A stretch of DNA of 63,874 bases, filler included, from Dugesia japonica (lineage: Eukaryota): the NCBI GenBank assembly GCA_001938525.1. It is 6 parts of 6 records of this genome, joined end to end, with 100 filler letters (N's around TTAATTAATTAA, not from the genome) between each part and the next. Parts side by side here need not be neighbours in the genome. Positions count along the whole stretch, not along the records: positions 20,901 to 36,022 come from MQRL01542858.1; 5 more parts are not named here. One strand, given 5' to 3'. Each line of letters begins with the position of its first letter. Positions within the stretch are counted from its first letter, which is position 1. Below the pieces are notes generated by a model. The model ran no database searches. It was given only the letters and a program-made list of their open reading frames with translations, and was not told the DNA's origin. Shown here in pieces: positions 13,040-42,902 of the stretch. Both the position numbers and the translations under genes were made by a program.

Positions 13040-13585
13040 TAGGTTATCGGTTGAATTTTTTATTTTTTGTCTTNNNNNNNNNNNNNNNNNNNNNNNNNNN
13101 NNNNNNNNNNNNNNNNNNNNNNNCTTTGTGCATATTCTGTGTTATCTCCTCAGGCTTTTCATGCAACTGGATAGGTTACGTCTCCAATACTGCTATTGTT
13201 GTTCATCCTGGGAGATTCTATATGGGTCAGCAACCAGGAGACCCATAGAGTCTCTAAGGCTAAGCATCTCCATAGCAGACAGTATAGAAAATGTCCATTC
13301 GTTGATCTGTAAATAATTTCTTTTGTCATTCTAGATTATGGTAATATCAGATAGCATGACAATAATATTTATCAGATGAAGATTAATTGACTTAAATTAA
13401 CCTTTTTACCTCAGTAGATGTGAAATGGCGTTTTCTCGACAAGGTTGTAATTTTCATTAACCTNNNNNNNNNNNNNNNNNNNNNNNNNNNNNNNNNNNNN
13501 NNNNNNNNNNNNNNNNNNNNNNNNNNNNNNNNNNNNNATCTACTTAGGTTATCGGTTGAATTTTTTATTTTTTGTCTTTAGAAAA

Positions 13586-14790
13586 ATGGAAACAACAAAA
13601 ATTAATCGTGATAATAATATTAATTTTCAAAATTTTTTTTTGAAAAATGAGGTTTTGAGAATTTCACCATCATCTGGTTCAATAAATAATTTAATGTGTT
13701 CTGGAGATATAGTTTTTCAATCTTTACAATCTTCAAATCCATTAGATATTTGTAATTCAATGTTATATTTTAAAGTAGAGATAACTGTTTCAGATAAAGA
13801 TAAAATAAGTTTAGAAAATAATTGGTTTCCAAGTTTATTCAAAACAATGAGATTAACTTTAGGATCTTCAGATGTAGAAATTATTAATGATCCAGGAATT
13901 CATCAACAATATTAAATTTTGTAACAACTAGTTCAATTTATAAAAAGATTTATGAAGAATTATCTAGATGGATTCCTGATGAAAATAATGGTGATTTAGA
14001 TGTTACTAGTTAGAATGCAAATACTGGTTTTTTTAAAAGAAAGAAACTTTATAATTCAAAAAATAAATTTGAAGGTTATTATACTTTGAAAAATTTATTT
14101 GGTTTTTTTAAATGTTACAACAGATTATTATACAACACAATGATTGAATTTACTTGTAATAGACAAATGAATGATAATGTAATATTTTATAGGGAAGCAG
14201 GTACAACTGCTACTTTAAAATTAATGACTCTAGAACTCCACATCCCAGAATGTAGATTAGTTCCAAAAATGGAAGTAAATCCTTTAGAAAGAATTTACAC
14301 AACTAAATCTTTTCAAGTTTCATTTTTAAATAGAATTACCACAAAAACGAATTTAGATTCAGGAAATTATTATTCAGTTAAACTGAGTAATTTAACTTAT
14401 AAACCAAGATATATATTTATTGGAATAAAAGAGTCAGAAATTTAATGTCAAAAGAATAATAATTTATTTATTCAACAAATTACTAAAACTGAAAATAAAA
14501 AAGAAGGGGCTGTTGAAAAAGAAGTTACAACCAAAAGCTCTATTAAAAGTATTCAAATACAATTAAACAATACATATTATCATATTAATGAATGTAAATT
14601 TAATATTTAAAATAATGAAATGATTTTTCCATATTTAAATTATGTAAATTGTTGTAAAGAATTTTTAACAGAACCACAATTATCTTTACAAGAGTTTGGT
14701 AATTTATACCAAATCTTTTGGTTTGATGTTAGTTCCCAAAACGATAAATTAAATATAAATACCGTAGATATAACTTTACATATAACATAC
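13586..14790 (+). pseudogene. Polinton double-jelly-roll major capsid protein (hexon-like), frameshifted
   Basis: ORFs 13556, 14086 and 14620 join: NSMLYFKVEI, LENNWFPSLFKTMRLTLGSSDVEIINDPG, WIPD, NTGFFKRK, LKNLFGFFKCYNRLLY, KPRYIFIG, IQIQLNNTYY, YQIFWFDVSSQ. These match the motif order I recognise in Polinton MCPs. Confidence 0.85.
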
Positions 14791-15042
14791 ATAGATCAAA
14801 ATATTTTGATAAATTTCTTAAAGAAAATTAAATTAATTTGTATCATAATAAAAATGAAGGTAAATCAGTCTTATTATTATTTAGATAAAGAAGCCGAAAT
14901 CTTAATGGAAGATTTATTTGAAGACTGAAATATCCCACTGGGAATCTGTGGTATTCTACTTCAACTTCAACTTTAGGTTCAACTTTATGTTAAAATCTTA
15001 TATAATTTCTTTTTCTTTATTAATATTATTTTTACGAAGAAA

Positions 15043-15580
15043 ATGTCTTCAGTTTCTGTACAAGAATTAATTGATTTGATAAATTCAAAAAAATTTAAAT
15101 CTGTAAAAATTAATGGAAAAATCTATTGGATTGAAAATAAAGTTAAAGAAGAACTGAAAAAGAAAATGGCAACTAGTAAAGAACATGAAGATGTATTTGC
15201 TTTTCTAGCTGTAATATCACCAATTATAGCTGGTTTAGCTTCTACAGCTAGAATTGCAACTGGTATAGCAAGTACAGTTAGTAATTCAAGAGATGCAAAA
15301 AAAGCAAAAAGAAACCAAAGTAGTAGAATTACAGAAAAAAGATTTAGAAAATAAAATTAAAAAAGAAAAAGAAATTGAATTATTAGATAAAGGTATTGCT
15401 TCAAAGAAACAAGGAAGTGGACTTTACTTATAACCATATTAAGGAAGTGCAATTCATAAATATTTCAAAAATAGTTTAGATAATTCAGCATTGAAAATTA
15501 TAACTAAAAACTTTAAGAAAGGAGTACAAGTTAAAATAAAAGGAGATGGTTTGTATTTAAAACCTTTTAAAAATGGATAG
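15043..15580 (+). pseudogene. Adenovirus pX-like core/membrane-active protein of Polinton
   Basis: EHEDVFAFLAVISPIIAGLASTARIATGIASTV resembles a decayed GG-FLPxLxPIIAG...GIAS motif; downstream repeats KQGSGLYL*PY and KGDGLYLKPF are GxG-type, putative adenain sites. Confidence 0.7.
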
Positions 15581-16418
15581 TGAACAAATAACAGGAAGAA
15601 TAAAACTTTTGCAAGATTTAATTAAAGCTTAAGATAATTATGATAATTTATTTACAGGTAATGTAATTGAATCAAGAACTTTACAAGATACTTTAACTAT
15701 TCAACAAAAACCTACTATTAAAGCAATTGAAAACTTAGGTAAAATATCTACAAACTCATTTGAAAAAAGAATATCATTCTTTTCTAAAATTAATTTAAAT
15801 ATTAAAAATTTATCACCATTAATTACACTAACATTTAAAATAGAAAATATTGATAATAAAAACTTTCTTAAGATAAGTTATTCTAATAAAGAATTATATT
15901 TATTTGAAGAAGATGGAAAGAAATACTTTTTATCTAAAGAAGAAATAATACCATTTTCTAAAGAAGTTATGAATTTAATTTTGGGAAATGGAAGTAATGA
16001 TCTAGAAGCAATTGATATTTATTTTAAAAAATTAAAAATTACATTTCCTACTAATTCTAAATATTGTCATTTATTAACTAGGAAAAAGCGAAGCTACTTT
16101 CAGTCACAATCAAGAGCGAACAACAAAAATACCAAAACTTAAAGAAGAAGTTGATAGTGAAAAAGAAATCCCAAAGAGTTCCTTTCCTGTAGAAAAACAA
16201 GAAATTCAAAAGGGACCCATTAAAGGTGAAGGTATAAACTCCAGAGAGCACCCTGACCCATTTCTTTGTTTGAAAGATTAACATTAATAATTTCAGCTGT
16301 AAAAGCCGGTCATAATAATTTAGAACAAGAAATTAAATCTGTTTGTAAATTATTATTAAACCAAGAAAATATTACTCACGAAAAATATAATGTTTATAAA
16401 AATAAATACTTTACCTAA
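15573..16418 (+). pseudogene. Conserved Polinton protein with C-terminal RLxLxxSAxxAGHNN motif
   Basis: Starts MDSEQITGRIKLLQDL...QKPTIKAIENL and ends ISLFERLTLIISAVKAGHNNLEQEIKSVCKLLL; contains stops and frameshifts. Confidence 0.65.
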
Positions 16419-16423
16419 AGAAA

Positions 16424-17529
16424 ATGTCTCATCAATTTTTAATTGTTGGTAATGAGTCTGATCTTAAGGTTAATTTAAGATTTCCTATAGAATTAGATTT
16501 AGAATATGAAATTGGATTATTATGTTTCAGTTGTTATAATATTATTTTTAATGTTACTAATAAAAATAATACTTTCTTATGTAATGATAAATTAATAACG
16601 ATAGAGCCAGGAGCTTATGAAATTAAAGAAATATCTAATAAATTGTCAACGTANNNNNNNNNNNNNNNNNNNNNNNNNNNNNNNNNNNNNNNNNNNNNNN
16701 NNNNNNNNNNNNNNNNNNNNNNNNNNNNNNNNNNNNNNNNNNNNNNNNNNNNNNNNNNNNNNNNNNNNNNNNNNNNNNNNNNNNNNNNNNNNNNNNNNNN
16801 GAAAATAAGATTGATATTTTAAATATTAATATGATAAATATAACTTGTAATTTAGTTTAAGGTAATTATATCAATAATTACTAATGAATTTATTACATTC
16901 TTTTCTAGTAAATTCTGTTGGTTTTGGTTTTAAAATTATAGAAAGACTTTATCCTCCAATTTATTCAAGANNNNNNNNNNNNNNNNNNNNNNNNNNNNNN
17001 NNNNNNNNNNNNNNNNNNNNTGTAATGATAAATTAATAACGATAGAGCCAGGAGCTTATGAAATTAAAGAAATATCTAATAAATTGTCAACGTATAAAAT
17101 TGAAGTTACGGCAGATCAATCAACAACAAAATGTAATTTAGATATAAAAGAAAATACAATTAAATTTNNNNNNNNNNNNTTTTTTCATACAATTTTAGGT
17201 TTTTTACTTAACCAGTATCCACCAGGAAAATATTATTCAGAAAATAAGATTGATATTTTAAATATTAATATGATAAATATAACTTGTAATTTAGTTTAAG
17301 GTAATTATATCAATAATTACTAATGAATTTATTACATTCTTTTCTAGTAAATTCTGTTGGTTTTGGTTTTAAAATTATAGAAAGACTTTATCCTCCAATT
17401 TATTCAAGATTAAAATCGAAACGTATTGATTGTTTAAAATTTAATATTATAGATGAAAATAATAATCCTATAGATTTTAATAGACAAACTATTTCTTTAT
17501 TATATCATATTAGAAAATGTATGGATTGA
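16424..17529 (+). pseudogene. Polinton minor capsid protein (penton-like)
   Basis: FPIELDLEYEIGLL, YNIIFNVTNKNNTF, ITIEPGAYEI, ILGF, INITCNLV, LLHSF, GFKIIE...PIY, IIDENNNPIDFN; partly duplicated around gaps. Confidence 0.85.
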
Positions 17530-18020
17530 AGTCCTACGGGATCCTAGACTTTTTGAAAACATTTGGAATAAATACTAAAACTAATTTTGATTTGTATTCT
17601 ATTGCTGATTTTTTAAATCTTGATATAGAGGTTTTAATGAAATATTAATTAAGCGCCACGCAGGGCGCACTTTCTAAAGATAAAAATGACGACAGCGGTC
17701 TTCAAAAATTAAAAGATAAAAATAATAAATCGGTCCCACGGGACTAAATTTCTTTAATAATTAATTATCAAAATTCAAATCAAAAAGGAACTCATTGGGT
17801 TGCTTTTTCTCCCAACGGGGCCCAAGGATATTATTTTGATTCTTATGGATTAAAACCTTTTAAAAAAATAGAATAATATGTAAATGTTTCTAATAAAATT
17901 CAAGTCCAATTTTTTGGAACTTGTATTTGTAGAGTTTTATGTTTATATTTTTTATATTCACTTACATCCAAATCTTTTAATGAAATAATTAATGAATTAT
18001 ATATTAACTTAAATAAATAA
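17517..18020 (+). pseudogene. Adenain-type (C5) cysteine protease
   Basis: Manual translation: IINYQNSNQKGTHWVAF, YYFDSYGLKP, QVQFFGTCICRVLCLYFL (His/Asp/Cys triad order; CG mutated to CR). Confidence 0.88.
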
Positions 18021-18720
18021 ATGAATTTTTGTGGAGAAACATTAAATAGTCAAAATAATACAGAAATATTAAAACATGTTTCTNCTAAATTAAAATTAGA
18101 ATCTATTAATAATGAATTAAGGTTTGTTAATGAAAGTGGTGATGCAATTACTAATTTAAAAATTATTAATGATCCAAAAAATAAATTAGATGCAATTAAT
18201 TTAAAATATTCTATTAAATTAGAAAAACCAGTATCTGATTTAAAATAATCAATCTAAAAATCAAAATATTTATATTCAACAACTTTTAGAGCTTCGAGAT
18301 CAATTTTTAGAAAATAATAAATCATGGATTTAAACTACGAGTGATTTAATTATTAAAATAAATAATATCAAAAATGAGCTGACGCAAATGAAGAGTGATT
18401 TATTTAATTCACAAGTGAATACTGATAAAAATACTAAGGAAAAAAAATAGATTTGAAAAAAGAAATCGTATAACTAACAAATAAAATAATTAATTTATCA
18501 AGTACTGGTTCACCTGAAAAATTTAATAAAATTAATTTAGAATTGGAAAAACTATCACAAAAAGTAGAATTATTAAACAATCCTTTAGTTCCTTTAGAAG
18601 AAGAATTTCTTAAAATAAAACAAGATCTTCATATTGATCGTGGTAATTATATTAATGATTATCTTATAAAAATAAAACAAAAAATAACTAAAGTAAACTT
18701 TATAGAGGAAACTTTTTAAA
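18021..18720 (+). pseudogene. Putative fibre-like / coiled-coil viral protein
   Basis: N-terminal ITNLKIINDPKNKLDAINLKY resembles the P-xxxx-DAxNKxYV repeat of viral fibre proteins; heptad-rich sequence follows. Confidence 0.4.
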
Positions 18721-18775
18721 CAAAATTAAAGAAATAATTGATAATTATTTTCCTTACTCTGATAAAATAAATATA

Positions 18776-19150
18776 ATGAATCCTAAAATACTTTTTAAAT
18801 TAACTATTTTATTAACAAAGAACTCATTACTATATCATTCTGGATTAACACCATTTAAAATAAAAAGAAAAGGAATTTTAAAAAACATTAAAGAAAAACC
18901 ATATAAATATTATTTTCTCGATGAACCATTAGAACTTTATTTTTATTTTAAAAAACTATTAGAGCAAGTAATTTTTTTATTTATTGGTTATACTGATATT
19001 ATTTATTTTAAAATCTATATAGTAATAATTAATAAACTAGAAGAACATGAATTTAATTTTACTTAAAAAGAATTATTTTATCTTTCAATAAATATTAACA
19101 AAATTTTAGAGAAACATAAACCAATAGAAAGAATTACTTTAACTTTACCA
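18776..19150 (+). pseudogene. Unknown viral ORF
   Basis: ORF 18776..19066 is co-oriented and tightly packed within the cassette; no recognised motif. Confidence 0.4.
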
Positions 19151-19249
19151 GCAANNNNNNNNNNNNNNNNNNNNNNNNNNNNNNNNNNNNNNNNNNNNNN
19201 NNNNNNNNNNNNNNNNNNNNNNNNNNNNNNNNNNNNNNNNNNNNNNAAT

Positions 19250-19942
19250 CAAAATACCAGTGGGTCCTATCCCAACGGCTCCCATCCCAAAGGGTCCCAT
19301 AAATATCCTGATTTAAATGAATATATTTATAAAAAATTTGAGTATACAATTAAAGATCAAAAAAACACTATAGAAGATTTAAAAGAAAAATTATCAGATT
19401 TAAGAATTGTAGATTTTGAATCAGATTTTTATTTTATTGATGATAAAATTAACTATTATAAAAAGATTTATAAAAGATGGAGAAGATTAGATACTTCGAT
19501 TAGATTTACAGAAATATTTTTTGGAACAATTGTTGGAATAAATGNAACTATATTAATTTCTTTAGGGACGATAGTAACTTCAGGAATATTGGGAACTATA
19601 GTTCCCATAATATTAACCACATCAGTTTTTTGTATTCCAATAATTGGTACTTTGAATTCATCTTTAATAAAAGCAAAAAAGAAGAAGTATAAAGATTTAA
19701 TTCATGAATTAGATACTGTTAAGAATAAATTATTTTNNNNNNNNNNNNNNNNNNNNNNNNNNNNNNNNNNNNNNNNNNNNNNNNNNNNAATAAGCAAAAA
19801 TATGGTTAAACAAGTTAAAGATTTAATTTTCCATGAAAATAAAATTGAAAATGATTTATTAAAGAAACTTGAAGAACAAATCGTGCTAACACAAACGAAG
19901 TGCGAAAGTCAACAGAAAATAATAAATAAATTAAAAAAATAA
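19250..19942 (+). CDS. Polinton membrane protein (hydrophobic hairpin plus coiled coil) with N-terminal YPDL
   Basis: Open frame KYPDLNEYIY...YYKKIYKRWRRLD, then hydrophobic FFGTIVG..ILISLGTIVTSGILGTIVPIILTTSVFCIPIIG, then KAKKKKYKDLIHELDTVKNKL; 5' end lies in an N gap and a second N gap falls inside the ORF. Confidence 0.65.
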   Translation, partial: QNTSGSYPNGSHPKGSHKYPDLNEYIYKKFEYTIKDQKNTIEDLKEKLSDLRIVDFESDFYFIDDKINYYKKIYKRWRRLDTSIRFTEIFFGTIVGINXTILISLGTIVTSGILGTIVPIILTTSVFCIPIIGTLNSSLIKAKKKKYKDLIHELDTVKNKLFXXXXXXXXXXXXXXXXXXISKNMVKQVKDLIFHENKIENDLLKKLEEQIVLTQTKCESQQKIINKLKK

Positions 19943-20286
19943 TTTCTATTTTGAATTTCTCATTTTTACCCTTTAAAATCCCAAAGGTTCCCATCCCCAC
20001 AAATTACAATTTAATTTTAGATTTTATAAACCGGTTTATAAAACTTCTTTTTCTTTTAATTTTGAAAATGAGAACTGCAGTTCCCAATTTATAAAACGTC
20101 TTAATTTAATTTTAAAAGTGTCTACTGCAATAGACAACTTTAGGTTTTTGTTTGTTTTAAATTTTAAAGTGTCGTCAAATTTTGAACCTTAGTAATAAAA
20201 CTTCTTACTTATTTTTATATTAAACTCCTTTCAGTCGTGAGTGGAAACGGAACTACAATTTAATTTTTGTTTTAATTTATCTAAGG

Positions 20287-20800
20287 TTAATGCCACTCAC
20301 TACTATTTTCGCATTTAAATTTATTACCATGTGGCCATGTTCTTACACCATTATCTTCAATTAGGCTTTTATCATCATATCCTGTTAAAGCAATCTTTTT
20401 TTGCTCAACCAATTCTATTTCATGTTTATTTGATTTTAAACTATAATTTATTCCAAAAATATTTTCTTTTGAGTTTAGTGCCTTATCAAATTCTTTCATT
20501 CCTATTNNNNNNNNNNNNNNNNNNNNNNNNNNTCGTTTGTCTAATTGCGCCCTTTAGGATTGTCAAACTCATAAGCATAACTTTTTGCTTTTATAAAATC
20601 ACATTTTGTTATTTCATTATTAAGTTTCTCATCTTTCATTTGAAATAATTTATTACCTAATAAACTTTCAACTTTTGTTAAATTATTTCTACCTATTGTT
20701 GGGTATTCGAACTCAACAAAAGATTTTATGGTTCGTTATAAAATAAATTATTCCCAATTTGGATGTTTATCTTTTGTGTATGTAAATACAATACTATATA
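20287..20800 (-). pseudogene. Protein-primed family B DNA polymerase, C-terminal part
   Basis: KSNKHEIELVEQKKIALTGYDDK...NGVRTWPHG matches the typical Polinton pPolB ending (KxALxxxDDKR...TxxxG); upstream KAKSYAY motif. Confidence 0.85.
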
Positions 20801-20900: not shown

Positions 20901-23152
20901 CCTCTGTATCTATTAATGAAAATAATTCCTTTCCCACTTGCATCCCGTCACAATAGTATGCTTATATGACTTTTTCTCAACCTATCATTAAAAATAACAA
21001 CAATATTGTGGTAGTTAATGATTGGCATGAATTTTGCTGAGGTATGCGTGCCCATCCATTCTCAATCTCATTTAGTTGACAACTAACTATTTTGATTACT
21101 CTAATTGCATTGTCATGTGATGGTGTTGGTTTGGGACGTATCGATTCAATAAATTTCTTCCATCCCCAATTTTGCTTTATTAGTGGTATGATATATTCTG
21201 CATTAGATCCCCGATGGGTAATTTACAGAGGACAAAGTTCTTTGACGGTTTGCTTCTGGCTATAGATATATGTGTTTGATTGATCAGATGCGCTATAGAT
21301 ATCACCATACGCCCTTTAGTTAGTTGTTCTTGTAGCAATTCATCCAACTCGCCCTCTAAGTTATCTCGCGTTTCTTGACTTGTGCCTTTACTGGAAGGTA
21401 ATTTCTTAATTGCTGACTCCAACTTTTTTACCAGTGATCTGAGGCTATCAGATAGTTAGAATTTTCCAATCCATATTTTTAGTTCCGGATATAACATTAA
21501 CAATNNNNNNNNNNNNNNNNNNNNNNNNNNNNNNNNNNNNNNNNNNNNNNNNNNCCACTTGCATCCCGTCACAATAGTATGCTTATATGACTTTTCTTCA
21601 ACCTATCATTAAGAATAACAACAATATTGTGGTAGTTAATGATTGGCATGAATTTTGCTGAGGTATGCGCGCCCATCCATTCTCAATCTCATTTAGTTGA
21701 AAACTAACTATTTTGATTACTCTAATTGCATTGTCATGTGATTGTGTCGGTTTGGGACGTATCGATTCAATAAATTTCTTCCATCCCCAATTTTGCTTTA
21801 TTAGTGGTATGATTTATTCTGCATTAGATCCCTGATGGGTAATTTACTGAGGACAAAGTTCTTTGACGGTTTGCTTCTGGCTATAAATATATGTGTTTGA
21901 TTGATTAGATGCGCTATAGATATCACCATACGCCCTTTAGTTGATTGTTCTTGTAGTAATTCATCCAACACGCCCTCTAAGTTATCTCGCGTTCCTTGAC
22001 TTGTGCCTTTACTGGTAGGTAACTTCTTAATTGCTGACTCCAACTTTTTTGCCAGTGATCTGAGGCTATCAGATAGTTAGAATTTTCCAATCCATATTTT
22101 TAGTTCCGGATATAACATTAACAATAATTGTTGTATTACTACTTATGTTGGCATGTCATCTTCCGCTGAATTTCCACTATATCTTTCCTGGGATACTGCC
22201 GCTAATCCCTTAGTTTGATGGTTCACTGAAGTTGCTAATCTCTTTTGCTATAACGCTTCCTTTAGCTCTGGGTTTCCTGGCGGTTTCGTTCTAGGTCTAC
22301 TTTGACTTATCGGTTCCGTAAGTGTTTCCGCATCTATCTTATTCCGTATAGGTGCTTTTTCTTCCAATACATGCCTAATTATTTCTTCAATTACAGTCAT
22401 TAGTCAACTGTTACGGTTGTTCTCAATGAAGTTGATCAATCTTCTGATTACAACTTACCAGTTGGGGATCCCTATTTTCCAGAACTGTGTTCATAGTAAG
22501 CATGGCTGGATATTCTTCTTAATTTCTTCCTATTAATCCTCCTTTTAATATATCTTCTTTTAATTTCTTCCTAATTAACTTCCTTAAATTTCTTCCTGAT
22601 TAGCTTTCTTTAATTTCTTCCTGATTATCTTTTATTTTCTTTTTGATTATCTTCCTTTATTTTCTTCGTGATTAACTTCCTTTATTTTCTTCGTGATTAT
22701 CTTCCTTTAATTTCTTCTTAATAAGCTTCCTTTAATTTATCTTCCTTAAATTTATCTTTAATTTCTTCCTGATTATGAGTTTCCGTGATAATTTCCGTGG
22801 ATATTCGACATGATCTCTGAAATTATAAACTAACATATTCTTATATATTTTACTTCCTAAGTTTTAACCCGATTCCTTATTAGTTTTAATTAACATTTTT
22901 ATTTAATATCATAATTCATCATTATAACCCCACTTTTAGAATGTATTATTTGACATTTATTTATTTTCACGTATTTGCGATTTTATACCATTATTAATTG
23001 TTATTTAAATATTCAATTATTAATTTATGTAGTATAACATTAACAATATTTGTCATGACATTTTCTTCTACTGTTCATGAATAAATTGTCCCTACTAAAG
23101 TTTGTTACATAGAAAATTTATTCAATATCCTTGCTGAGCCCCCAAAATTCTT
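20901..23152 (-). mobile_element. LTR retrotransposon 5' internal region (PBS, leader, gag with repeats, start of protease)
   Basis: Minus strand: LTR end ...CCCTAACA at 23152; PBS TGGGGGCTC; E/K/N-rich repetitive gag start at 22520-22810; ELFSLIDTE (DTG-like) at the contig end ~20901-20930. Confidence 0.65.
23136..23144 (-). promoter_or_regulatory. Primer-binding site complementary to tRNA-Pro 3' end
   Basis: TGGGGGCTC located 7 nt inside the putative LTR end CA. Confidence 0.6.
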
Positions 23153-23395
23153 GTTAGGGTCCCACCTGAGTTTGTAGAGGGAAAATACGGCTGGGGAAAA
23201 GACAGACTTCAGGGGACCATTCAAGAATTTGCCTAATGTCCCTAATTAGGTTATCGGCACAGAGTGGTTGACTTCCAACGTATACTTGAAGTGCTCACTT
23301 GTATGCCTTTATTTCGCGTTCATTATTTTCCCATTCTTTATGTTTAATGAATAAATTGTCAATAAAACTTGAAATTAACATTTATTTTACGCTAA

Positions 23396-23758
23396 TCACA
23401 TAAATTCTAGCGCTCCAGGGTCTAACCACTGGGTAGGCTCTCCAGTCATAAAATTAAAAGCGGCTTCGTCATCGTCGCTACTCCAACGGGCCCAGGTCTC
23501 TTGCTCGAGGTGGTTGGCCAGATCAGTGATATATTGTTGCAGAAATTCGATCTTATACAGCAGGATCTGCTTAGTATGTTCTTCCAACTCGCCCTGCTTC
23601 TTGACGATAATATCTAATTCTTTTATCATTCGGTTTCCCTGGGTCAGATGACGTAACAATGCATGCTCATTTTTTCGCTTAATGTGCTGTTCTAACAAAA
23701 GTTTCCGTATAAGTCGATGGCACAGGGGAAGACTTGATGGCAATTGTATTCTAAGCAC
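23396..23758 (-). CDS. Unknown helical/coiled-coil protein or terminal exon, 120 aa
   Basis: Uninterrupted GC-richer ORF; preceded by a pyrimidine tract plus AG (ttatccatttcgttatag); AATAAA follows the stop. Confidence 0.5.
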   Translation of the reverse strand: MLRIQLPSSLPLCHRLIRKLLLEQHIKRKNEHALLRHLTQGNRMIKELDIIVKKQGELEEHTKQILLYKIEFLQQYITDLANHLEQETWARWSSDDDEAAFNFMTGEPTQWLDPGALEFM

Positions 23759-23976
23759 TATAACGAAATGGATAAATAAAAGTTAACTCAAATGATAAAA
23801 TACAATACAATTATTAAATTATTGTAAATCAAGGATTTCAAATGGATACTAGTCATAAAGATACAACAAAGACTTTATTCTATACATAAAAGAGAATCAC
23901 AGCAAGTTATGAACGCGAGGACTGTGTCGTCTTGTCTACCATTAGGGTTCGAGTGGCATGCGCTTCCACAGCTCCA

Positions 23977-24195
23977 TTACGTCCACCACCAGTTTATTTT
24001 CACAGTCATAGAGAGACCGGATGATTTCCGCAAAGACACTAATTGTTGCTTCCAAATGCGTTCTTGCGCATGGAAAGCTTCAGCCTCTTTACGGAACATG
24101 ACACATTTGCTCTTGTAACGTTTGACTTTACTCTCTGCAACGGCAATGTCGGCCTCCCAACAGCGTTTAGCTAGTCTATAGACATCCCACGTCAT
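23977..24195 (-). CDS. Unknown coiled-coil small protein (possibly decayed)
   Basis: GC-richer ORF EADIAVAESKVKRYKSKCVMFRKEAEAFHAQERIWKQQL; AATAAA at ~23875 on the minus strand. Confidence 0.4.
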   Translation of the reverse strand: MTWDVYRLAKRCWEADIAVAESKVKRYKSKCVMFRKEAEAFHAQERIWKQQLVSLRKSSGLSMTVKINWWWT

Positions 24196-24407
24196 GTCTA
24201 TGTCTTCACTATTCTCTATAATCTTTTTTTAGGAGCGGACAGTCGATTGAGCGATGAGTAAATTATAAAAAAATAATAACAATAACCACTGAATTTCACA
24301 TAACAAATACTTTAGGAAACTAAACTTTATTTCAATGAATCAATAAAAGTTGTAAGACAAAGTTACTATGAAGAAATTTTATTTTTAACCCACTAAACGA
24401 CACCTAA

Positions 24408-24770
24408 TTAATTCTCGGGGCCTCTGAGTCTCCGTAATATATTGTTAATAAATTCTATCAACCCAGAAAAAGGCGGCAAGTGCGGTGTAGAAATCGGGAC
24501 AACAGAGGGACCTTCCCGCCATTCTCTGGTTGACTGGGGTTCACCATTATTATCTAATTGAGTAGTAATAGTGATGTAATAGGTCTCACGAGCACGATTA
24601 TGGCTGGTACAGTCGTAGAACGCCTGCCACTCCATGGCATCCCAATGCCGTTCATCGTTTACATCTGCGGTCGACAGGTTGAAGCGGTCAGCTAATACCC
24701 ACACGTTTCTATTAAACGTGTTTTTGTACCGCTTAAATATCATTTGGTCCGTCCGGTGATCAAGTAACAT
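24408..24770 (-). CDS. Unknown 120 aa protein
   Basis: ATG-initiated intact ORF with protein-like composition in an AT-rich background; AATAAA about 25 nt after the stop. Confidence 0.5.
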   Translation of the reverse strand: MLLDHRTDQMIFKRYKNTFNRNVWVLADRFNLSTADVNDERHWDAMEWQAFYDCTSHNRARETYYITITTQLDNNGEPQSTREWREGPSVVPISTPHLPPFSGLIEFINNILRRLRGPEN

Positions 24771-26979
24771 TTCCCATTTAAATTACACTGAAGTTACACT
24801 GGTCTTTATTATTTATAAAAGGAATTAAAATAATAATACTGTATGTAAAGCAAAAAAAATAACTAGACAAGTAGCAGAACAATTGAACTATTATTTCAAA
24901 AACAAAAAATATAACCACAGTAAATACTGTAAATATAGTCATAATACCCCTAACCATTGGTAGATATCCTTATAATAATGGTTTTATTAATTAACCGTAT
25001 AGTCAGAAGGGCAACAATAGTGGTGATATCATTGGTCGAGCATGATGATAGTAGTGATACGAAAATTACGAGAATAGTAATAATAATAAAGATATTGATA
25101 ATCATAGTAAAATCAATTGTAATAATAATAACACTCGTATTCCTATAACTATTGTGGTAGAATTTTTTACACTTCTTTTTAAACATCATAACTATACATA
25201 TAGGGAATAGCGATCCTCCATGATAATGACAAGAATCCTAATAAAATTACTAAGAATAATGCTGTTAATAATAAGGTTCATAATAATAATCAAACTAAAT
25301 GATATTAATAATAACAATTTTATAAACAATGAAAACCATGTAAAAATAATCTTAATTTTAAAAGTCACCACTTATTGCATAGCAATAATTATAGAAGTCT
25401 GGATAACAACGATAATAATCCGTAGTAATATGAATGATACTAACGATGCTAAAATTCATGATAAGAATGATAATAGTGATAATGCTAGAAACAATAAATA
25501 AAAAAAATAAAGTGAGATTTTAATGATAAAAATCATTAGTTAATACTATTACGTGAAATACAGTAGCAGTACCCATATTTTAAGTTTGTTGCCTTTTTCC
25601 TTTCTTCTATAGTATTAAGTTGATGAGACTATTGACAGCTTTTACTTGATGATTGATGGTGAGTAAAAAATTAATGTAATCATGGGGTTAATAGAATTCT
25701 AGGCCTATTGAGAATATCATGAAGGCTGACTAGTTGATATAAATGTGTGTATACATAAACCTTTAGTTTACTAGAGTTTTTTCGTGATGATTAGATATTT
25801 TGGGGTGACAAGGTGTATCTTGACTATCTGGTACTTGACTCAGTAGGTGTGCAGATTTCGCTGCTCTGAGCTTTCACAANTAATGTTAGACGAATCATTG
25901 ATGGCTGTCGACGTTATGCAGTTAATAGTTTTTCTAATTAATCAGCATGCATAACTCAGCAGATTAGCATTTATCATCTACAGTTAGCAAATTTCCCTGT
26001 ATTTAAAATGGAGTTTGATTTACTGGTGGGGTTATTGAAAGTGAAATTATTCTTAGTGCGAAAAATATATACACACAACTGAGTCAATTAAACATATGAT
26101 AATCTAGCGAAATAACTAAACCGCATCGCAGAATTAAATGAACTTTTATTAAATAATTATAAACAGTTTAATGAAATTAACAATTAAACAACATCACTGC
26201 AATAAATGAACTTTTATTAACAATTTTAGATAATTTAAACGTTAACTACAATTAAATAACACATGCTTACTCTATATTAATTTGCAACGGGAATGAAAAA
26301 TAATATAATTCCGAGGAGATAACTTGCCTGTTTGAGTTGTCCAACGAATTGATTTCACTATTTTCCACAAAATATGACTAATGTAGCTGTCGGAATAGTT
26401 AGAGAAATTTACTGTTTTATTTCGTTCCTTGATAACTGAATTTACAATACTTTCGATAAGCAAATTTTTGTTTATATCTGTTTATACAGAGTAAATAACC
26501 AAATTTTTTAGGGGGATATTACTAATTTTTAGGGGGTTTTATACCATTTTCAGTTACAATCTGAAATAGCTTTCATTGGTTTTCTATTTTTGTTTTTCGT
26601 TTCTTACTTCCTATTGGTGCTGGTCCCAATTTTTTGACTTTTTCTGAGAACTTTAAATCTTCTATTGGTGCCTATTTTTAGGACACCTTGTGATTTTCAG
26701 AGCTTTGTCTTACGTTTCTTTTCTGGCTCTTTATTGGCCTATTCTTCAACCCCTTTTCTAGGCTCTCTTGATAACAGCAGGGTTTTCTTGTTGCCAAACT
26801 TCATTGCCCCATAACTTTCTCTCTTCAAATTTTCTTATTGGTGTTTTCTATGATTCTCCAGAGCGGAGATATTCTACAAAAACTGATTTTCATTNAATTA
26901 ATCTTCTTTTTCGCAGTAGATTAATTAATTTTTTCTTGTTAATTAATTATTTTTTTTAACGATAATTTTCTTGTTTTTC

Positions 26980-27731: not shown

Positions 27732-28973
27732 CTAGGTTGAGTCAAAAGTTCCCGGATACTTTTTATTTTTTCTATTTTAATTAAAAAAAGCAACAAATTT
27801 TTTTAAAAAATTGTATTATCTATTTTTATATAGTAAGTCAATTATTATAGATTTAATTTCAAAAAATTATTTATCATAGAAGCTCACAAAATGGCGGACG
27901 AAAAAATTCTAATTCGCGGTATCCTGCGTCATTATTGGAAACAGGGTCTAAGCGTAAGAGCAACAGCCATAAAAATATGTGAAATTGAAGGTCCTGGGAT
28001 AGTCTCAAAAGCCACCGTAAAAGAATGGTTTCATAGATTTAATGAAGACAAATGATGTTTTGGAAGGCCATCGATCCTGATAAATGAAGCTTTATTGGAA
28101 GTTATTTAACAAAAGCCAGGCACCAGCATTTGTATACTGGCTACTCAACTTGAGACGTCTCAATCAACCATTGTTCGGTACCTTCACGAACTTGGCTTTG
28201 CAAGTAAGAAACCCAGATTTGTTTGCCATGAACTTTTTCATCAACAAGCACAAAGGAGAGAAGAAATTTGCAAGAAATTATTGGATTATCCCAAAGATGA
28301 CANGTTCTGGAGACGAATCATAACTAGCGATGAAAAGTAGATATATCTCAGTAATCCTATTATCAAATGGCAGTTGTTTTGGCCAGGTCAGAAGGCTTCA
28401 TCAATAACTAAAAGGGAAGGTTCGAACACAAGGTGATGTTATCCATATGGTGGAACTTTGAGGCTCCTGTATTATAAAGCTAATTCCTGAAGGCCGGGCT
28501 GTGGATGGAAACCTGTATGTTGAACAATTGGAACGACTTTATGATCTTCTGGCCACTCGTTATTGAGCTTTAATCAATAAAAAACGAGTATTTTTGCAGC
28601 ATGATAATGCTCCAGCCCATAACTCTAAAGTTGTAAAGTCTAAGTTAGAAAAGCTTGATGTAATCAAACAACTACCTCACCCAGCTTATAGCCCAGACCT
28701 AGCTTCACCAGATTATAACTTATTCCAGTCAATGAGTAATTTTCTGATTAACAAAAGATTTAATAGCAGATGTCAAAAAAGGAGTCTTTGAGTTTTTGCA
28801 GTCCAAGCTACCAGAATGGTATTAGAAAGAAATCCAAAATTTAACTGATAGATGGTTGAAGATCTTATCTAGCGAAGGACTTTATTTTGATGAATAAAAC
28901 TTTGATGTTTTATGAATATTTTTTATATATATTTTTTAGTTTAAAGTGTCCAGGAACTTTTGACTGAACCTAG
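27732..28973 (+). mobile_element. Near full-length decayed mariner (DD34D) transposon
   Basis: ~31-bp TIRs CTAGGTTGAGTCAAAAGTTCCCGGATACTTT / AAAGTGTCCAGGAACTTTTGACTGAACCTAG flanked by TA. Transposase 27891-28897 has ITSDEK, QHDNAPAH and HPAYSPDLASPDYNLF, with stops. Confidence 0.95.
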
Positions 28974-29999: not shown

Positions 30000-32233
30000 T
30001 ATAGGGAATTCATATAAAATTATGCAAATTTATCAGAACCTCTCAGTTTGATGCTAAAGAAAGAAAACAAAATTCATTGGGCAGATGAAAATAAAGAATA
30101 TTTTTACAAGCTAAGTAAAAGGATGATAGGAACCATCAGAACTAGCTTTGCCAACAAAGGATGGAAAATATATTTTTGATACATTTGCTTCTCACAACGC
30201 AATTGGTACTGCACTTTCTCAAGTACAATATGGCAAGGAACGAGTATTATACTATACATTGAGGACACTAACAAAAAGTCAGAGACAGTACTTCATTGCA
30301 AGAAAAGAGCTTCTGGCAATATATGTGTTTGTCCTCAAGTTTAAGCACTATTTTATGGAATCACAATTTGTTGTACGAACAGATCACCAAGCATTAAAAT
30401 GAATGCTTAATTGGAATATCTCAAATACGTCTCAATACTGCATGTGTGAAGCTGGATTGGAAATCTTTGATATGATTGTAGAATTTAGAAAAGGTCGTGA
30501 GCATATTAATGCTGATGCACTTTCACGACTACCAGATTGCAAGTAGTAGTTAATAAAACTCGAAGATCCAAAAAGAAAAAGAAACGTTAAAATATACAAG
30601 ACAACAAACGAATATTAGCAACAAATTATACGCTCAGAAAAAGTTATAAATAAAATATACCAGGAAGACGAATGGGAACAAAGAAAAAATATAAATATAC
30701 AAATAAAACTAGATGCTCTAGAAAAAAACGAGAAAACACTTTGTGACGTAATGTTAAATAATGAAATACGATCGTATTGGGAGAAAAAGAAAGAAATGTG
30801 AATACGATATGAGATGCTATTTTAAGAAAAGTATGAGAAATATCTTCTTATTGTGCCGCAGACATAAAAGAGAAGATGTTATTTGGAAATATCACAAGTT
30901 ATTGGGACATCAATGAGTAGAGAAAACAACAGGAGTTATTAAAAATGAGTATTATTGTTCGTCTATGGACAAAAGCATAAGAGAATAACTATCAAAATGT
31001 AAATAGTGTAATTCACATAAATTCATTAACGGAAGAATTAAAGCACCATTACAAAATATATCCGAAAAAGAACCATTTCAAAGTATTGCAATAGATAATA
31101 CAGGACCATTTAAATCAACGCAATATGGTTATAAATATATTCTTGGAGTTGTTGATTATTTTTCAAAGTTTATGTTTAATTCTTTTGCGTACAATAACAA
31201 CTGAAGATATATGTGAAGTTCTTTGTATACATTGAATATCCAAGTTTAGAATACCTAGTCGAATACACTCGGATTATGGTAGTAATTTAGTTCAAGTACA
31301 TTTCAGAAATATTGCAAGCAATATGGAATAGTGAAAACATTTTCATCTTCATATTACCCTCAAGTAAACAGATTTGTAGAAAGAATATTTAGAACCGCAA
31401 AACCTATGATTAGAGCAGTACTAGAAGACAGGCAAATTCAAGTTTGGAGTATGCTGCTACCAATAATAAAATATGGATTATGAACAACAACACAAAAAAC
31501 GAATAAGTACTCTCTGTATGAAATAGTATTTGAGAGAAAACCTAGAATCGATATATGGATTGCTAGCAGGGAAACGAACATTACAAAGAATTCTGATCAA
31601 TATGCAGAACAATTAAGAAGAAATATTGTGAATACTCGTGGCCATGTAAGAAAAAATATAGAAGAGCATAATGAAGTTACAGCAGCTAAATATGACAAAT
31701 ATCGATGGAAAAATGAAATTAAAATTCATTATAAAGTGCTGATAAATAAACAATGCATATGATGGTTTTAAAAGGCGATATATTNGACCNTTTAAAGTAA
31801 TAAATAAAATTAATGAATAGACTTACACTTTGCTTGATAAAAATAGAAATACTTTAATTCAAAGAAATTACAACCAAATCAAATGAATACCAAGAGACGA
31901 ACTTTCCTACATGTCATGGAGCACACAGATATCAATAAGAAGTAAACAGTAAACAGACTTACCAGTACAAACTGACCGATCAACTGAGAGCGATATCAGA
32001 AGGCTTTATCCAGAAAAAATGACAAGGAATCCAAATCCTCGATATCGATAAAGCAAAGAGAGTAATGTGATATATTTAAATTATAGTAATATTTACATAT
32101 ATCGAAATTCAAATTATTGAATATTTAAAATTTAATATTAAAAAATATTAAAATGAATTTGATTTGTTTTAATATTGATTTTTTTAAAAATATAATTTTA
32201 ACTTGTTAATAATCCTATTATTTAATATCCACA
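30000..32233 (+). mobile_element. Gypsy 3' half (RNase H, integrase, PPT, 3' LTR 32066-32233)
   Basis: FDTFASHNAIGTALSQ, RKELLAI, RTDHQALK, HINADALSRLP, PFQSIAIDNTGPF, VVDYFSKF, IHSDYG, YYPQVNRFVERIFRT. Purine tract AAAGCAAAGAGAG precedes TGTGATAT...ATATCCACA. Confidence 0.88.
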
Positions 32234-39873: not shown

Positions 39874-41822
39874 NNNNNNNNNNNNNNNNNNNNNNNNNNN
39901 NNNNNNNNNNNNNNNNNNNNNNNNNNNNNNNNNNNTTATCATTGTTGTTAAATGTTATTGTTATTTGAAGATTTTACTAAATCAAATATTAAATAATAAT
40001 TAATACTTACTAAATATTTTCTGATTGTAACAAAAATTCATTATGTATTGAATGTTAATTTTTTTAACAAAATTTACATTGTTGTATTGATATGAAAACC
40101 ACTGTTGTATGAATATAAATTGATAATGAAATATTTATTCGGACACAGTCTAATTAATTGATATTTGTCGATTGCATGGTCTTATTTTGTGTCATTTATT
40201 ACTGAGTAACAATACTACTTTTCCAATAGTCAGTAGTAAAGTATGTTAATATTTATTTAATATTACTTCAATCATTTTAATAAAGTGACAAACAAAACAC
40301 TGAATATATTTTCGGCTAAATAATGAAATTTTGTTTTGTAAAATATCGACTTTAGATAACATTGATTTTTTCGATGAAAATTATAATTGGTAATATGGGG
40401 AATTATAACAAAATTAACAAATCACACACAACACTGTATTAAAGAAATATTTTCCCTCGGATGATTCATACATTTTACAACAGTGAATACAGAAATGTTT
40501 AGACTGAAAGACACCCTGCTAATATTCATCATAAACTAATAGTTTTGAAAAATTTTTATATTTTCAATTGAATGTGAAAAATATTTCAAAGAAAATCAAA
40601 CTTTTAAAATAAACAATAAAACTTTCAATCAAACGGTTGTAAACTGTACCAATTAAAATGATAATTCTATAGCTTTCAAATAAATCTCATCACCATCAAT
40701 TGTATTTTTTTAAATTATTATTTAAAAATAAAATTTACTTGAAAATGATCATGCATCTCTTCTATTTCTCGTTGCATTTCCTCTTGTTCTTCTTTCAACA
40801 TGTCATTCTCTTCCATAACATCTTGGCACAGTTGTTCAATTTCTTCCATTCTGACTCTCAACTGTTCATTTTCAGCTAGAATTTCTTGATGTTTAGTACT
40901 CATTGATTCGTTAACATCAATATTGGCTTGATCGCTTTCCGGTAATTTCAGTCTTTCTCTGAATAATTAAATTTCTTTTAAATAAATACAATATCAAATT
41001 TCATTTTGATTTTTATGTATCATTTGCACATTTAATGATTACATAATAGAATAAATTTTGATCTATTTATTTTGTAAATAAATAAATAGATGTAGAATAA
41101 AAATTAAAAATCAAAAAAACAAAAAGATTTTACCGATAGCTGCGAACTTCGTCGTCTAAATGTTGAATTCTTCTTTCATAATGAATTGTTTTATTTTTTA
41201 AAGCTTCAATGTCTTCCAATAAATCTTCATTCAAATGATTTTTATCAGTCAACTCCTTTTCCAACTCTGCTTTTTCTTTACAAATTTCATCGTATTTGTC
41301 TTCCAAATCAAAGAAATCGTTTTCTAACTCTTCAACATATTTCGTATCGATACTTGAAGTGGAATTTTGTCTGTTAGCAGAAAACGAACCAGAATGTCTT
41401 GAAACACTGGATGATGGACTATTTGCTGGGCTTCTTCTTCCCGTGTTTGATCCCATTGTTCTTTTACTTTCTCTTGGTGATGGAGTTTTCTGTTTGAATT
41501 CGTCTGATTTTGGTCGTCGTCGAGTGTTTGGCGATGTTTCACCCTTTCTCAGTACCGGATCTTTTGAAATTCCACTAATTGATGTCGACTGAGAATTACC
41601 ACTACTCGTCGATTTTGTTCCTAATAATGGACTCGTTCTTGGACTAATTCCTTTACCATTATTTCCACTATTAGTTAAAGGCTCAGTAGGATGATCAGGT
41701 AAAGATCTGAAACAATTTTTACAAACAGTTCTTCTCCATTGTTGCGGTTCAAAAGTATAACATTCCTTTTTCTTTGATAAAGTTCCAGATCCTTCTCGGG
41801 TTCGATTATTATTTGATGCCAT
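37887..41822 (-). CDS. SOGA/MTCL-like: SOGA/MTCL-family coiled-coil protein, 5' part. Exons 41822-41134, 40958-40739, 38997-38791, 38737-38564, 38444-38382, 38327-38109, 38058-37887; 3' end not seen
   Basis: All introns are GT-AG and phase-consistent. Family signatures: EIEEMHDHFQEDDTDTLRELKRDLETSNKNCRIFQFKLRKTERR, EELRVAKEVSVRLNSELELVDEKR, ERETDLTEQLKFAEDD. No stops. Confidence 0.92.
39790..39873. repeat. (ATT)n microsatellite; others at 42904-42939, 45004-45071, 47646-47676
   Basis: Direct reading. Confidence 0.95.
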
Positions 41823-42902
41823 AGTGATAGATTATTTGTAGAAAAAAATCAATAGAAAAATTGTATTTAAGAAATTTGACCACCGGTGACTCAAAAATTT
41901 AAGAATCAAGCCAAATGATGAATTTTACAAGAAATACTTGTGGTTTGTAATTAGATTTTCGTCCTAAAAAATTGTTTTTTTTTTCACGCCAAATCTGAAC
42001 TTTCAAATTGAAATTTGTTCGAAAATTGATTCTTATTCTTGTTTCAACAAGAATAATTCTAGAAAATGACCTAATCGACGAAAACTAAATATGAAGAAAT
42101 TATAACTGTTGTTCGCCTACTGCTATCATTTAACGGTGGATCTGGTGAGAGTTTTGATCGATTTATGAAATTCATGATCACAGTTTCGATGTTTACCGTA
42201 TATGCGATAGTCAATCTGTGCAAATTGTGCATGCGAGTTCGTGTGTCGACCAAGGTGTGTACGGCAACTGGGAACTGTGTTTAGACATCTAACGCTTTTC
42301 TCTTAAATATTGATGACTAAGAGCAAGATTGTGTCTGTAGAGATCCCTGATTATTATTTATGTAATAAAAACGAAAAGATTTTTTTGTACTTCATTCAAT
42401 TGGAAAAATTTAGAAAAACATCGAAAATTAATACAGAACTCGAATGCTTGTCAAATTAATTCATTTACTTAATATTGACAGTGGGTTTCCATTTGGTTAT
42501 CAATGAATTTTATGTATTATTATTATTGCTACAATCAAATGTATTTGCTGTTATTAGTGTGCGTAATAATTAATAATTAGCAAATACTCTAAAATAAACA
42601 ATAATTAATAATAAATTGTTTCTTAGATGATGTAATAATAATAGAAATAAAACTGACAGAATTAATGTGCTTCATTAACTACCTAATTATTAATTTTTCT
42701 GCAATNNNNNNNNNNNNNNNNNNNNNNNNNNNNNNNNNNNNNNNNNNNNNNNNNNNNNNNNNNNNNNNNNNNNNNNNNNNNNNNNNNNNNNNNNNNNNNN
42801 NNNNNNNNNNNNNNNNNNNNNNNNNNNNNNNNNNNNNNNNNNNNNNNNNNNNNNNTATTATTTTATACAAAATAACTACAAGTTATGATACTTAAGATAA
42901 AA

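Follow-up and report, generated by a model that had tools for sequence, protein, structure and literature searches.

A 64-kb stretch of DNA from the planarian Dugesia japonica (assembly GCA_001938525.1; the whole stretch is called the window below) contains three short GC-rich open reading frames (ORF1–ORF3), which lie beside the end of a Gypsy-type long terminal repeat (LTR). These ORFs are probably an accessory cassette borne by a Gypsy retrotransposon, with a function that is predicted only. This is supported by the ORF2–spacer–ORF3 order kept in other copies and by the position of the cassette, which has an integrase on one side and an LTR end on the other. Overall, we lean slightly towards a reading in which a compact Gypsy family distinct from Burro carries the three frames as mini-genes, which would be transcribed separately and encode soluble regulators, and in which the window shows a junction between tandem units. 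The region is read on the minus strand, and all coordinates refer to the whole window.

Three GC-rich frames flanked by an integrase and an LTR end

On the minus strand, a Tc1/mariner copy is followed by a decayed integrase, a 1.8-kb non-coding and ATT-rich interval, the three GC-rich islands, the LTR end, 7 nt, an 18-mer resembling a primer-binding site (PBS), a 310-nt leader and a gag-like frame. The features are as follows.

27630–26550 (−): decayed Gypsy integrase with zinc-binding domain, core and C-terminal part; 3′ end estimated by eye
25613–26477 (−): post-integrase non-coding stretch, based on the contig tables
25594–25610 (−): longest polypurine run in the region, a candidate polypurine tract (PPT), with no TG after it
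24787–24817 (−): TATA-like box (24817) and initiator (Inr)-like TCAGT 28 nt downstream, immediately 5′ of the ORF1 start codon; together a predicted internal promoter
24782–24408 (−): ORF1, frame of 124 codons; ATG at 24770 gives 120 aa; orphan; AATAAA at 24383
23875–24228 (−): ORF2 island; frame 24228–23977 of 83 codons; ATG at 24195 gives 72 aa; AATAAA at 23879
23782–23396 (−): ORF3, frame of 128 codons; island 23396–23758, 120 codons past an acceptor-like AG; AATAAA at 23386
23152–23380 (−): 3′ terminal portion of the LTR (minimal LTR), with AATAAA at 23313 and ...CCTAACA as its last letters
23127–23144 (−): tRNA-Pro-like PBS, 7 nt past the LTR end; begins TGGGGG
20902–22811 (−): decayed gag-like frame; ATG at 22811; 25-bp tandem array at 22551–22776; reaches a scaffold gap, where it ends with a protease-like LIDT motif

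The islands have a GC content of 0.45 (24408–24770), 0.43 (23875–24230) and 0.44 (23396–23758), whereas the flanking spacers have 0.22–0.24 and the window overall 0.28. They hold the only 300-nt windows in the 64 kb that reach a GC of at least 0.43, in line with the first-pass annotation, which had described three GC-richer minus-strand islands co-oriented with gag. Its statements that each island ends near an AATAAA, and that two frames stay open beside a decayed gag, hold as well. The AATAAA starts 24 nt after the stop of ORF1, 97 nt after that of ORF2 (at the island end) and 9 nt after that of ORF3. The word occurs in 41-mers drawn at random at a rate of 9.7%, or 17.5% if they are AT-rich, so this placement is moderately above chance. 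Frames as long as ORF1 and ORF3 arose in 7 and 6 of 1000 dinucleotide shuffles, respectively, and the gag-like frame has four stops in 201 codons. A second open minus-strand frame (24079–23942) overlaps ORF2, so that the 3′ part of ORF2 could be read in either frame. No kinship among the three ORFs and no ORF duplication was found within the window.

The integrase, which the first-pass annotation did not mention, is located 1.8 kb upstream of the ORFs on the same strand and matches PF17921 (E 2.2e-6) and the prototype foamy virus integrase (E 3.6e-7). It is decayed (4 stops in 110 codons plus 8 in 133 codons) and truncated upstream, ahead of the mariner copy at about 27740–28940 (+), which has HTH_48 and DDE_3 matches. 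Two features of Ty3/Gypsy elements are present: a retroviral-type integrase as the 3′ end of pol followed by non-pol sequence, and an LTR that terminates in CA, with a tRNA-type PBS after it that is common to 46–53 contigs. The reverse transcriptase and RNase H of this element are absent from the window, and no second LTR was found in it. Between the integrase and the PBS, no frame exceeds 128 codons and none has a Pfam match, so that an errantivirus-type env (F-type or gB-type) is not seen in this decayed copy. The ATT-rich stretch at 24950–25500 (−) has frames for very hydrophobic, Ile-rich peptides (maximum hydropathy 3.07 and 2.63) and is either a simple repeat or a decayed membrane-protein gene.

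Paired TATA and Inr words occur nine times in 61.8 kb counting both strands (0.07 per kb per strand), which gives about a 1.5% chance per 200 nt for the pair ahead of ORF1. A different arrangement, in which the same genes are real but serve as alternative last exons spliced from an LTR leader, as in complex retroviruses and Cer1, seems fairly unlikely. Acceptor-like sites lie ahead of ORF1 (24838), ORF3 (23757) and the gag-like ATG (22816), and ORF3 has no early ATG. Such sites are also denser here, with nine in the 3.45 kb of 23150–26600 compared with 1.07 per kb window-wide. The clean splice acceptor reported earlier at one island start is indeed found, as the AG at 23757 preceded by 14 pyrimidines in 18 positions, but it is one of these nine similar sites. 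Moreover, no RNA-supported joint appears among the best 15 of 78, no acceptor was scored ahead of ORF2, and ORF1 possesses its own ATG and TATA/Inr pair.

Database searches with the ORF products gave no relatives. None of 10 candidates for ORF1 and not the single candidate for ORF2 proved to be a homologue, no ORF3 homologue was found among 1.84 billion representatives, and the ORFs have no match in Pfam or NCBIfam. ORF1 and ORF3, the two queried, have no usable look-alike in the Atlas; their recognition values are 1829 and 1804, compared with 2300 typical of known families. No related locus turned up in prokaryote genomes (none of 80) or, for ORF2, in metagenome contigs (none of 143). A 17-aa match of ORF2 to a viral contig, among 14 stretches, was rejected as chance, and so was a 16-aa metagenome match of the integrase, on an unrelated GC-rich contig. 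A single sub-threshold match was obtained with Rfam.

The products are predicted to be soluble. None of the three has a transmembrane segment (maximum 19-residue hydropathy 1.02, 0.23 and 0.72 for ORF1–ORF3), and all three lack the transmembrane helix and the MG start of sORF2/FAST-like fusogens. The ORF2 product is basic, with 15 Lys/Arg against 7 Asp/Glu. ORF3 is modelled from its single sequence as a helical hairpin (predicted local distance difference test, pLDDT, 65), and the ORF1 model is poor (pLDDT 49.5; best VIA Z 3.5). The structure comparison proposed in the first-pass annotation returned no BFVD fold match at E ≤ 0.001 for either model, a result that is uninformative for such single-sequence folds.

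Capture of the cassette from a DNA virus, a Polinton-like element or the host, with no service to the retrotransposon, was also considered, and we regard it as improbable. The GC content of 0.44, compared with 0.28–0.30 in the host and the integrase, would suit a foreign origin, as would the virus-like packing of gene, polyadenylation signal and gene, and a Polinton-like capsid gene (PF21738) lies 9 kb away. However, three protein scans of viral contigs in IMG/VR gave no relative (none of 28 stretches for ORF1, none of 9 for ORF3), and there was no BFVD match at the above threshold. A captured viral cassette had been suggested earlier; the lack of a viral relative speaks against it and falls short of disproof. 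In addition, more than 80 contigs contain a motif of ORF2, which, together with the frame-keeping differences described below, suggests long retention.

Other copies of the frames and RNA reads from relatives

Copies were sought at a likeness of 85 in four of the 24 sequencing runs listed, two of DNA (X3 and X1; paired values are given in this order) and two of RNA (X9 and X10). The results comprise the best 40 of 546 differences, 12 of 22 insertions or deletions, 15 of 78 joints and 16 of 7490 pieces. Contigs of the locus itself show 97–99% identity at a depth of about 10. Beyond these, four overlapping pieces of 84–87% identity tile 23579–24031. Other loci thus carry ORF3 together with the adjoining spacer and the 3′ portion of ORF2 as a collinear block. 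The tiling comes from the two DNA runs.

The number of contigs with different letters varies strongly along the region. It is lowest in the leader (0/1 and 0/1), 1/1 at 25895–26002 and 2/2 at 25665, and ranges from 2/2 to 9/3 in ORF1. The spacers reach 10–13/9–11 (24367–24384) and 11/13 (23824). ORF2 harbors a widely shared motif about 33 nt wide (about 23988–24020), for which 88/83 contigs are found at 24010. In ORF3, values of 5–11/4–15 in the 5′ half rise to 42/35 at 23481, followed by 31–60/32–60 in the LTR terminal part and 53/46 at the PBS. Joints from ORF2 to the ORF3 end (in both DNA runs) and from ORF3 to the LTR terminal part have sides of 22–27 letters and are weak, and a joint between 23175 and 26406 (side 24) was too short to be used.

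The post-integrase stretch adds a further connection. Its part at 25613–25835 recurs at another locus, directly attached to integrase sequence (322-nt contig, 92% identity; joint 25835–26778). This joint, from 26778 to 25835–25613, lies in one contig, is seen in both DNA runs and has 64 letters on its short side. It ties the 25613–25835 stretch to the element, whereas 25836–26477 is covered by a single 865-nt contig. Within that single-contig part, 26135–26261 contains 1.9 copies of a 68-bp unit, each with a minus-strand AATAAA. Taken together, the data connect ORF2, ORF3 and the post-integrase stretch to the element, and they do so less strongly for ORF1.

Differences between copies bear on whether the frames are coding. 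The length differences seen in or close to ORF1 and ORF3 number three, and each is divisible by three (−33 in ORF1, −33 in ORF3 and −39 in a 98% piece over most of ORF1), whereas joints in the integrase and the post-integrase stretch have net differences of −41 and −907. Read in the ORF frame, the letters intervening at the −33 joints are free of stops (by eye, from single contigs), and none of the best 12 of 22 insertions or deletions falls inside the three frames. A TATA-like word was also seen by eye at similar spacing before ORF3 in other copies.

It is hardly probable that the islands instead serve the LTR or 3′ region as GC-rich regulatory modules without coding function, with frames that are partly due to chance. 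Such modules would accord with the ordinary length of ORF2, the lack of homologues, the below-typical Atlas values, the finding that sharing is widest for a 33-nt DNA motif, and the excess of non-synonymous changes (8 of 12). Against this, two same-strand frames of 124–128 codons span their islands end to end (0.6–0.7% each), the three length differences keep the frame, and AATAAA words follow the stops.

RNA reads matched sparsely, 17 of 10.5 million in X9 and 183 of 13.6 million in X10. Relatives of ORF2 are present in X10, where depth is 3.3 and 4.0 over 23962–24127 and 2.5 over 24128–24293, similar to the integrase bins; one ORF3 bin has a depth of 0.9.

Several observations weigh against coding, expressed and element-borne mini-genes. 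The length of ORF2 is reached in 216 of 1000 dinucleotide shuffles and is not beyond chance, its in-frame stop lies about 100 nt short of the island end, and the first in-frame ATG of ORF3 is codon 53. ORF1 has few relatives (2–9 contigs), with no long piece of 85–90% identity among the best 16 of 7490, and the −39 difference is possibly allelic, its gap place not being located. Among the best 40 of 546 single-letter differences, those in the ORFs comprise 4 synonymous and 8 non-synonymous changes (integrase control, 2 of 8), which gives no signal of purifying selection; the differences listed favour changes private to this copy, so that the test has low power. No read in X9 or X10 is at least 99% alike to this copy (0 of 17 and 0 of 183), which is thus not seen expressed, and RNA depth over ORF1 is 0–0.2. 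The splice and polyadenylation evidence called for in the first-pass annotation was looked for in these runs, which revealed neither starts nor ends of RNA nor any splice joint, the strand being unreadable. Finally, no homologue or fold points to any function, and summed contig depth, used below for the LTR end, does not equal copy number.

In the favoured reading of separately transcribed mini-genes, a cassette of small genes would be placed after pol, and each gene would be made as its own short polyadenylated RNA. The TATA/Inr pair ahead of ORF1 would act as an internal promoter, each AATAAA would terminate one transcript, and proteins would be produced from the ORFs. By analogy with sORF1 of MDG1 and CERV of Cer1, these small soluble proteins may regulate element expression or the host response rather than act as membrane fusogens. 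The window would then represent a tandem junction, with the integrase and cassette of one unit, a shared LTR, and the PBS and gag of the next.

Extent of the LTR and the gag-like frame

The PBS/LTR end at 23152 reported earlier is present in the sequence, as ...CCTAACA followed by the PBS-like word at 23144–23127. The assignment of the latter to tRNA-Pro is tentative and follows its likeness to the tRNA-Pro PBS of Cer1, a Gypsy element of C. elegans, which begins TGGGGG (PMC3315495). Summed contig depth over the LTR end and PBS (23132–23177, 46 nt) is about 72,000–80,000, compared with about 10 for single-copy DNA, and is 22,500–24,600 at 23132 in the PBS. The LTR end and PBS are common to a very large set of elements; their pattern is absent from viral contigs.

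Where the LTR starts is less clear. A start at 23380 would give a 229-bp LTR with a 5-nt inverted repeat, and a PPT followed by a matching TG start was not found in the region, neither at 23380 nor near 24400. The number of different-letter contigs steps from 2 at 24446 to 9–13 at 24367–24384, and the non-coding spacers are better shared than the leader, a pattern compatible with an LTR of about 1.25 kb that contains ORF2 and ORF3. The same step could result instead from faster turnover of ORF1. Two placements stand at roughly even odds: ORF2 and ORF3 may lie inside an LTR of about 1.25 kb whose start is near 24400, or they may immediately precede a 229-bp LTR. More broadly, an LTR of about 1.2–2.4 kb may contain both ORFs. 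An LTR start at the integrase end is disfavoured, since 25836–26477 occurs in one contig and 25613–25835 in two, both adjoining the integrase. The earlier suggestion that the ORFs are 3′ cargo of a tandem element with a short LTR fits the order integrase–ORFs–LTR end–PBS–gag; its short LTR lacks a polypurine tract at 23380. A more far-reaching version appears doubtful. In it, a large Gypsy superfamily would have two to four orphan mini-genes lined up in virus-like fashion within its LTR, every one transcribed independently from a promoter of its own and provided with its own polyadenylation signal; they would be present at both element ends and would spread with solo LTRs as ready-to-use expression units.

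A fourth frame (23381–23154, −) has 75 codons and one internal stop; it starts at the proposed short-LTR start, ends in the LTR terminal bases, and has no Pfam or NCBIfam match. Acceptor-like sites are also seen at the LTR end (23190 and 23165, −), the word at 23165 being donor-like as well, and the acceptor at 22816 (−) lies 5 nt ahead of the gag-like ATG (by eye). These sites would allow a possible spliced gag RNA that bypasses the PBS.

The gag-like frame has no match in Pfam, NCBIfam, the PDB or homologue searches; with stops read as X, and among longer proteins only, 0 of 1649 were homologues. No CCHC knuckle was seen in it. We infer its gag identity from its position and from the protease-like LIDT motif, called by eye at about 20910. 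Since 20934–21504 repeats 21555–22125 over an N gap, the distance from ATG 22811 to this motif is about 1.3 kb after removal of the 621-nt duplicate. The Gypsy pol at 4000–6500 was rejected as a continuation of the frame, as it has its own protease motif.

These data bear on the first-pass proposal that the ORFs are accessory genes carried in the multi-kb LTR of a giant element of the Burro type. The accessory, element-borne nature of the ORFs is supported, and the Burro type, which we consider very unlikely, is not. In its favour, the depth of about 72,000–80,000 at the LTR end and PBS would be expected of a family with thousands of copies; Burro elements have accessory ORFs and tandem repeats (PMC6431247), and the gag identity here lacks database confirmation. 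On the other side, the short distance from ATG to the protease-like motif leaves no room for SMC, MATH, BIR, BCL2, Env or ankyrin cargo, no CCHC knuckle was seen, and the contig coverage of 25613–26477 speaks against a sister LTR reaching that far.

Elsewhere in the window, 13400–20800 is a decayed Polinton/Maverick-like region with a double-jelly-roll domain at 14014–14445 (PF21738), its other genes being recognized by eye only. Near-identical duplicates (96.5–100%) beside N gaps (20934–21504/21555–22125, 12619/13124 and 16801/17240) are likely assembly artefacts, as is TTAATTAATTAA between N runs. Two further decayed Gypsy pol fragments with RNase H matches and a reverse transcriptase-bearing insertion (RVT_1) between duplicated 146-nt blocks together occupy 4000–7000 (−), 146–3940 (+) and 30100–31800 (+). 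A 233-codon open frame at 41130–41831 (−) has sub-threshold Pfam matches only.

Relation to known Gypsy elements

In the MDG1/412 group of Drosophila Gypsy elements, two short ORFs, sORF1 and sORF2, are located downstream of the PBS. They encode about 70–110 aa on the gag strand; sORF1 is helical and nuclear and is followed by an alternative polyadenylation site, and sORF2 functions in cell-to-cell transmission (PMC11952523). The planarian ORFs resemble them as short same-strand accessory ORFs with a polyadenylation signal. However, that report places the MDG1 sORFs upstream of gag in an LTR-to-LTR transcript, whereas the ORFs described here precede the LTR end and PBS. In addition, sORF2 has a transmembrane segment and an MG start, which are not seen here, and no sequence relation was found.

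Cer1 shares the TGGGGG start of the PBS and the possession of an orphan accessory protein, CERV, which regulates genomic RNA and RNA export (PMC10309623). CERV is about 60 kDa, is spliced and has peptides in common with the Gag N-terminus (PMC3315495, PMC10309623), whereas here three frames of about 120 codons follow pol. The Tor3b/4b elements of Oikopleura have a post-pol env driven by an internal promoter rather than by the LTR (PMC4402516); that gene is a single transmembrane env, compared with three soluble orphans and a promoter that is predicted only. LTR elements of bdelloid rotifers carry post-pol ORF3s that are env-like or encode a GDSL esterase, a DEDDy nuclease or small transmembrane proteins (PMC5408684). 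They are alike in having varied non-env cargo after pol in invertebrates, and differ in that the present cassette has three ORFs, without a Pfam match.

Burro/GYPSM1, a giant planarian element, is similar in being a Gypsy element of an AT-rich host (the S. mediterranea genome is >70% A/T; PMC11410931) with accessory ORFs, tandem repeats and an apparently large family. The Burro polyprotein of 4,873 aa contains many cargo domains (PMC6431247), whereas the element here has a compact gag–protease, no cargo domains or CCHC seen, and nothing to suggest that its LTR extends to the integrase. No SMC, MATH, BIR, BCL2, Env or ankyrin Pfam domain was found in the scanned pieces, a comparison that depends on the by-eye protease call. 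Burro membership is thus unlikely, and the widely shared LTR end may reflect a more distant Burro link.

No description of a three-ORF cassette was found in the literature searched, which did not extend to the primary Burro paper and Repbase, both of which may bear on novelty; PMC13524379, PMC8532177, PMC13238120 and 10.64898/2025.12.11.693146 contributed nothing further on these ORFs. Accessory ORFs as such are well known, and curated repeat libraries may already draw the present ones. Short accessory ORFs in invertebrate Gypsy elements have real functions, as reported for sORF2 (PMC11952523) and CERV (PMC10309623). If the favoured reading is true, the three soluble orphans would constitute a new accessory gene set in a seemingly large family of planarian Gypsy elements.

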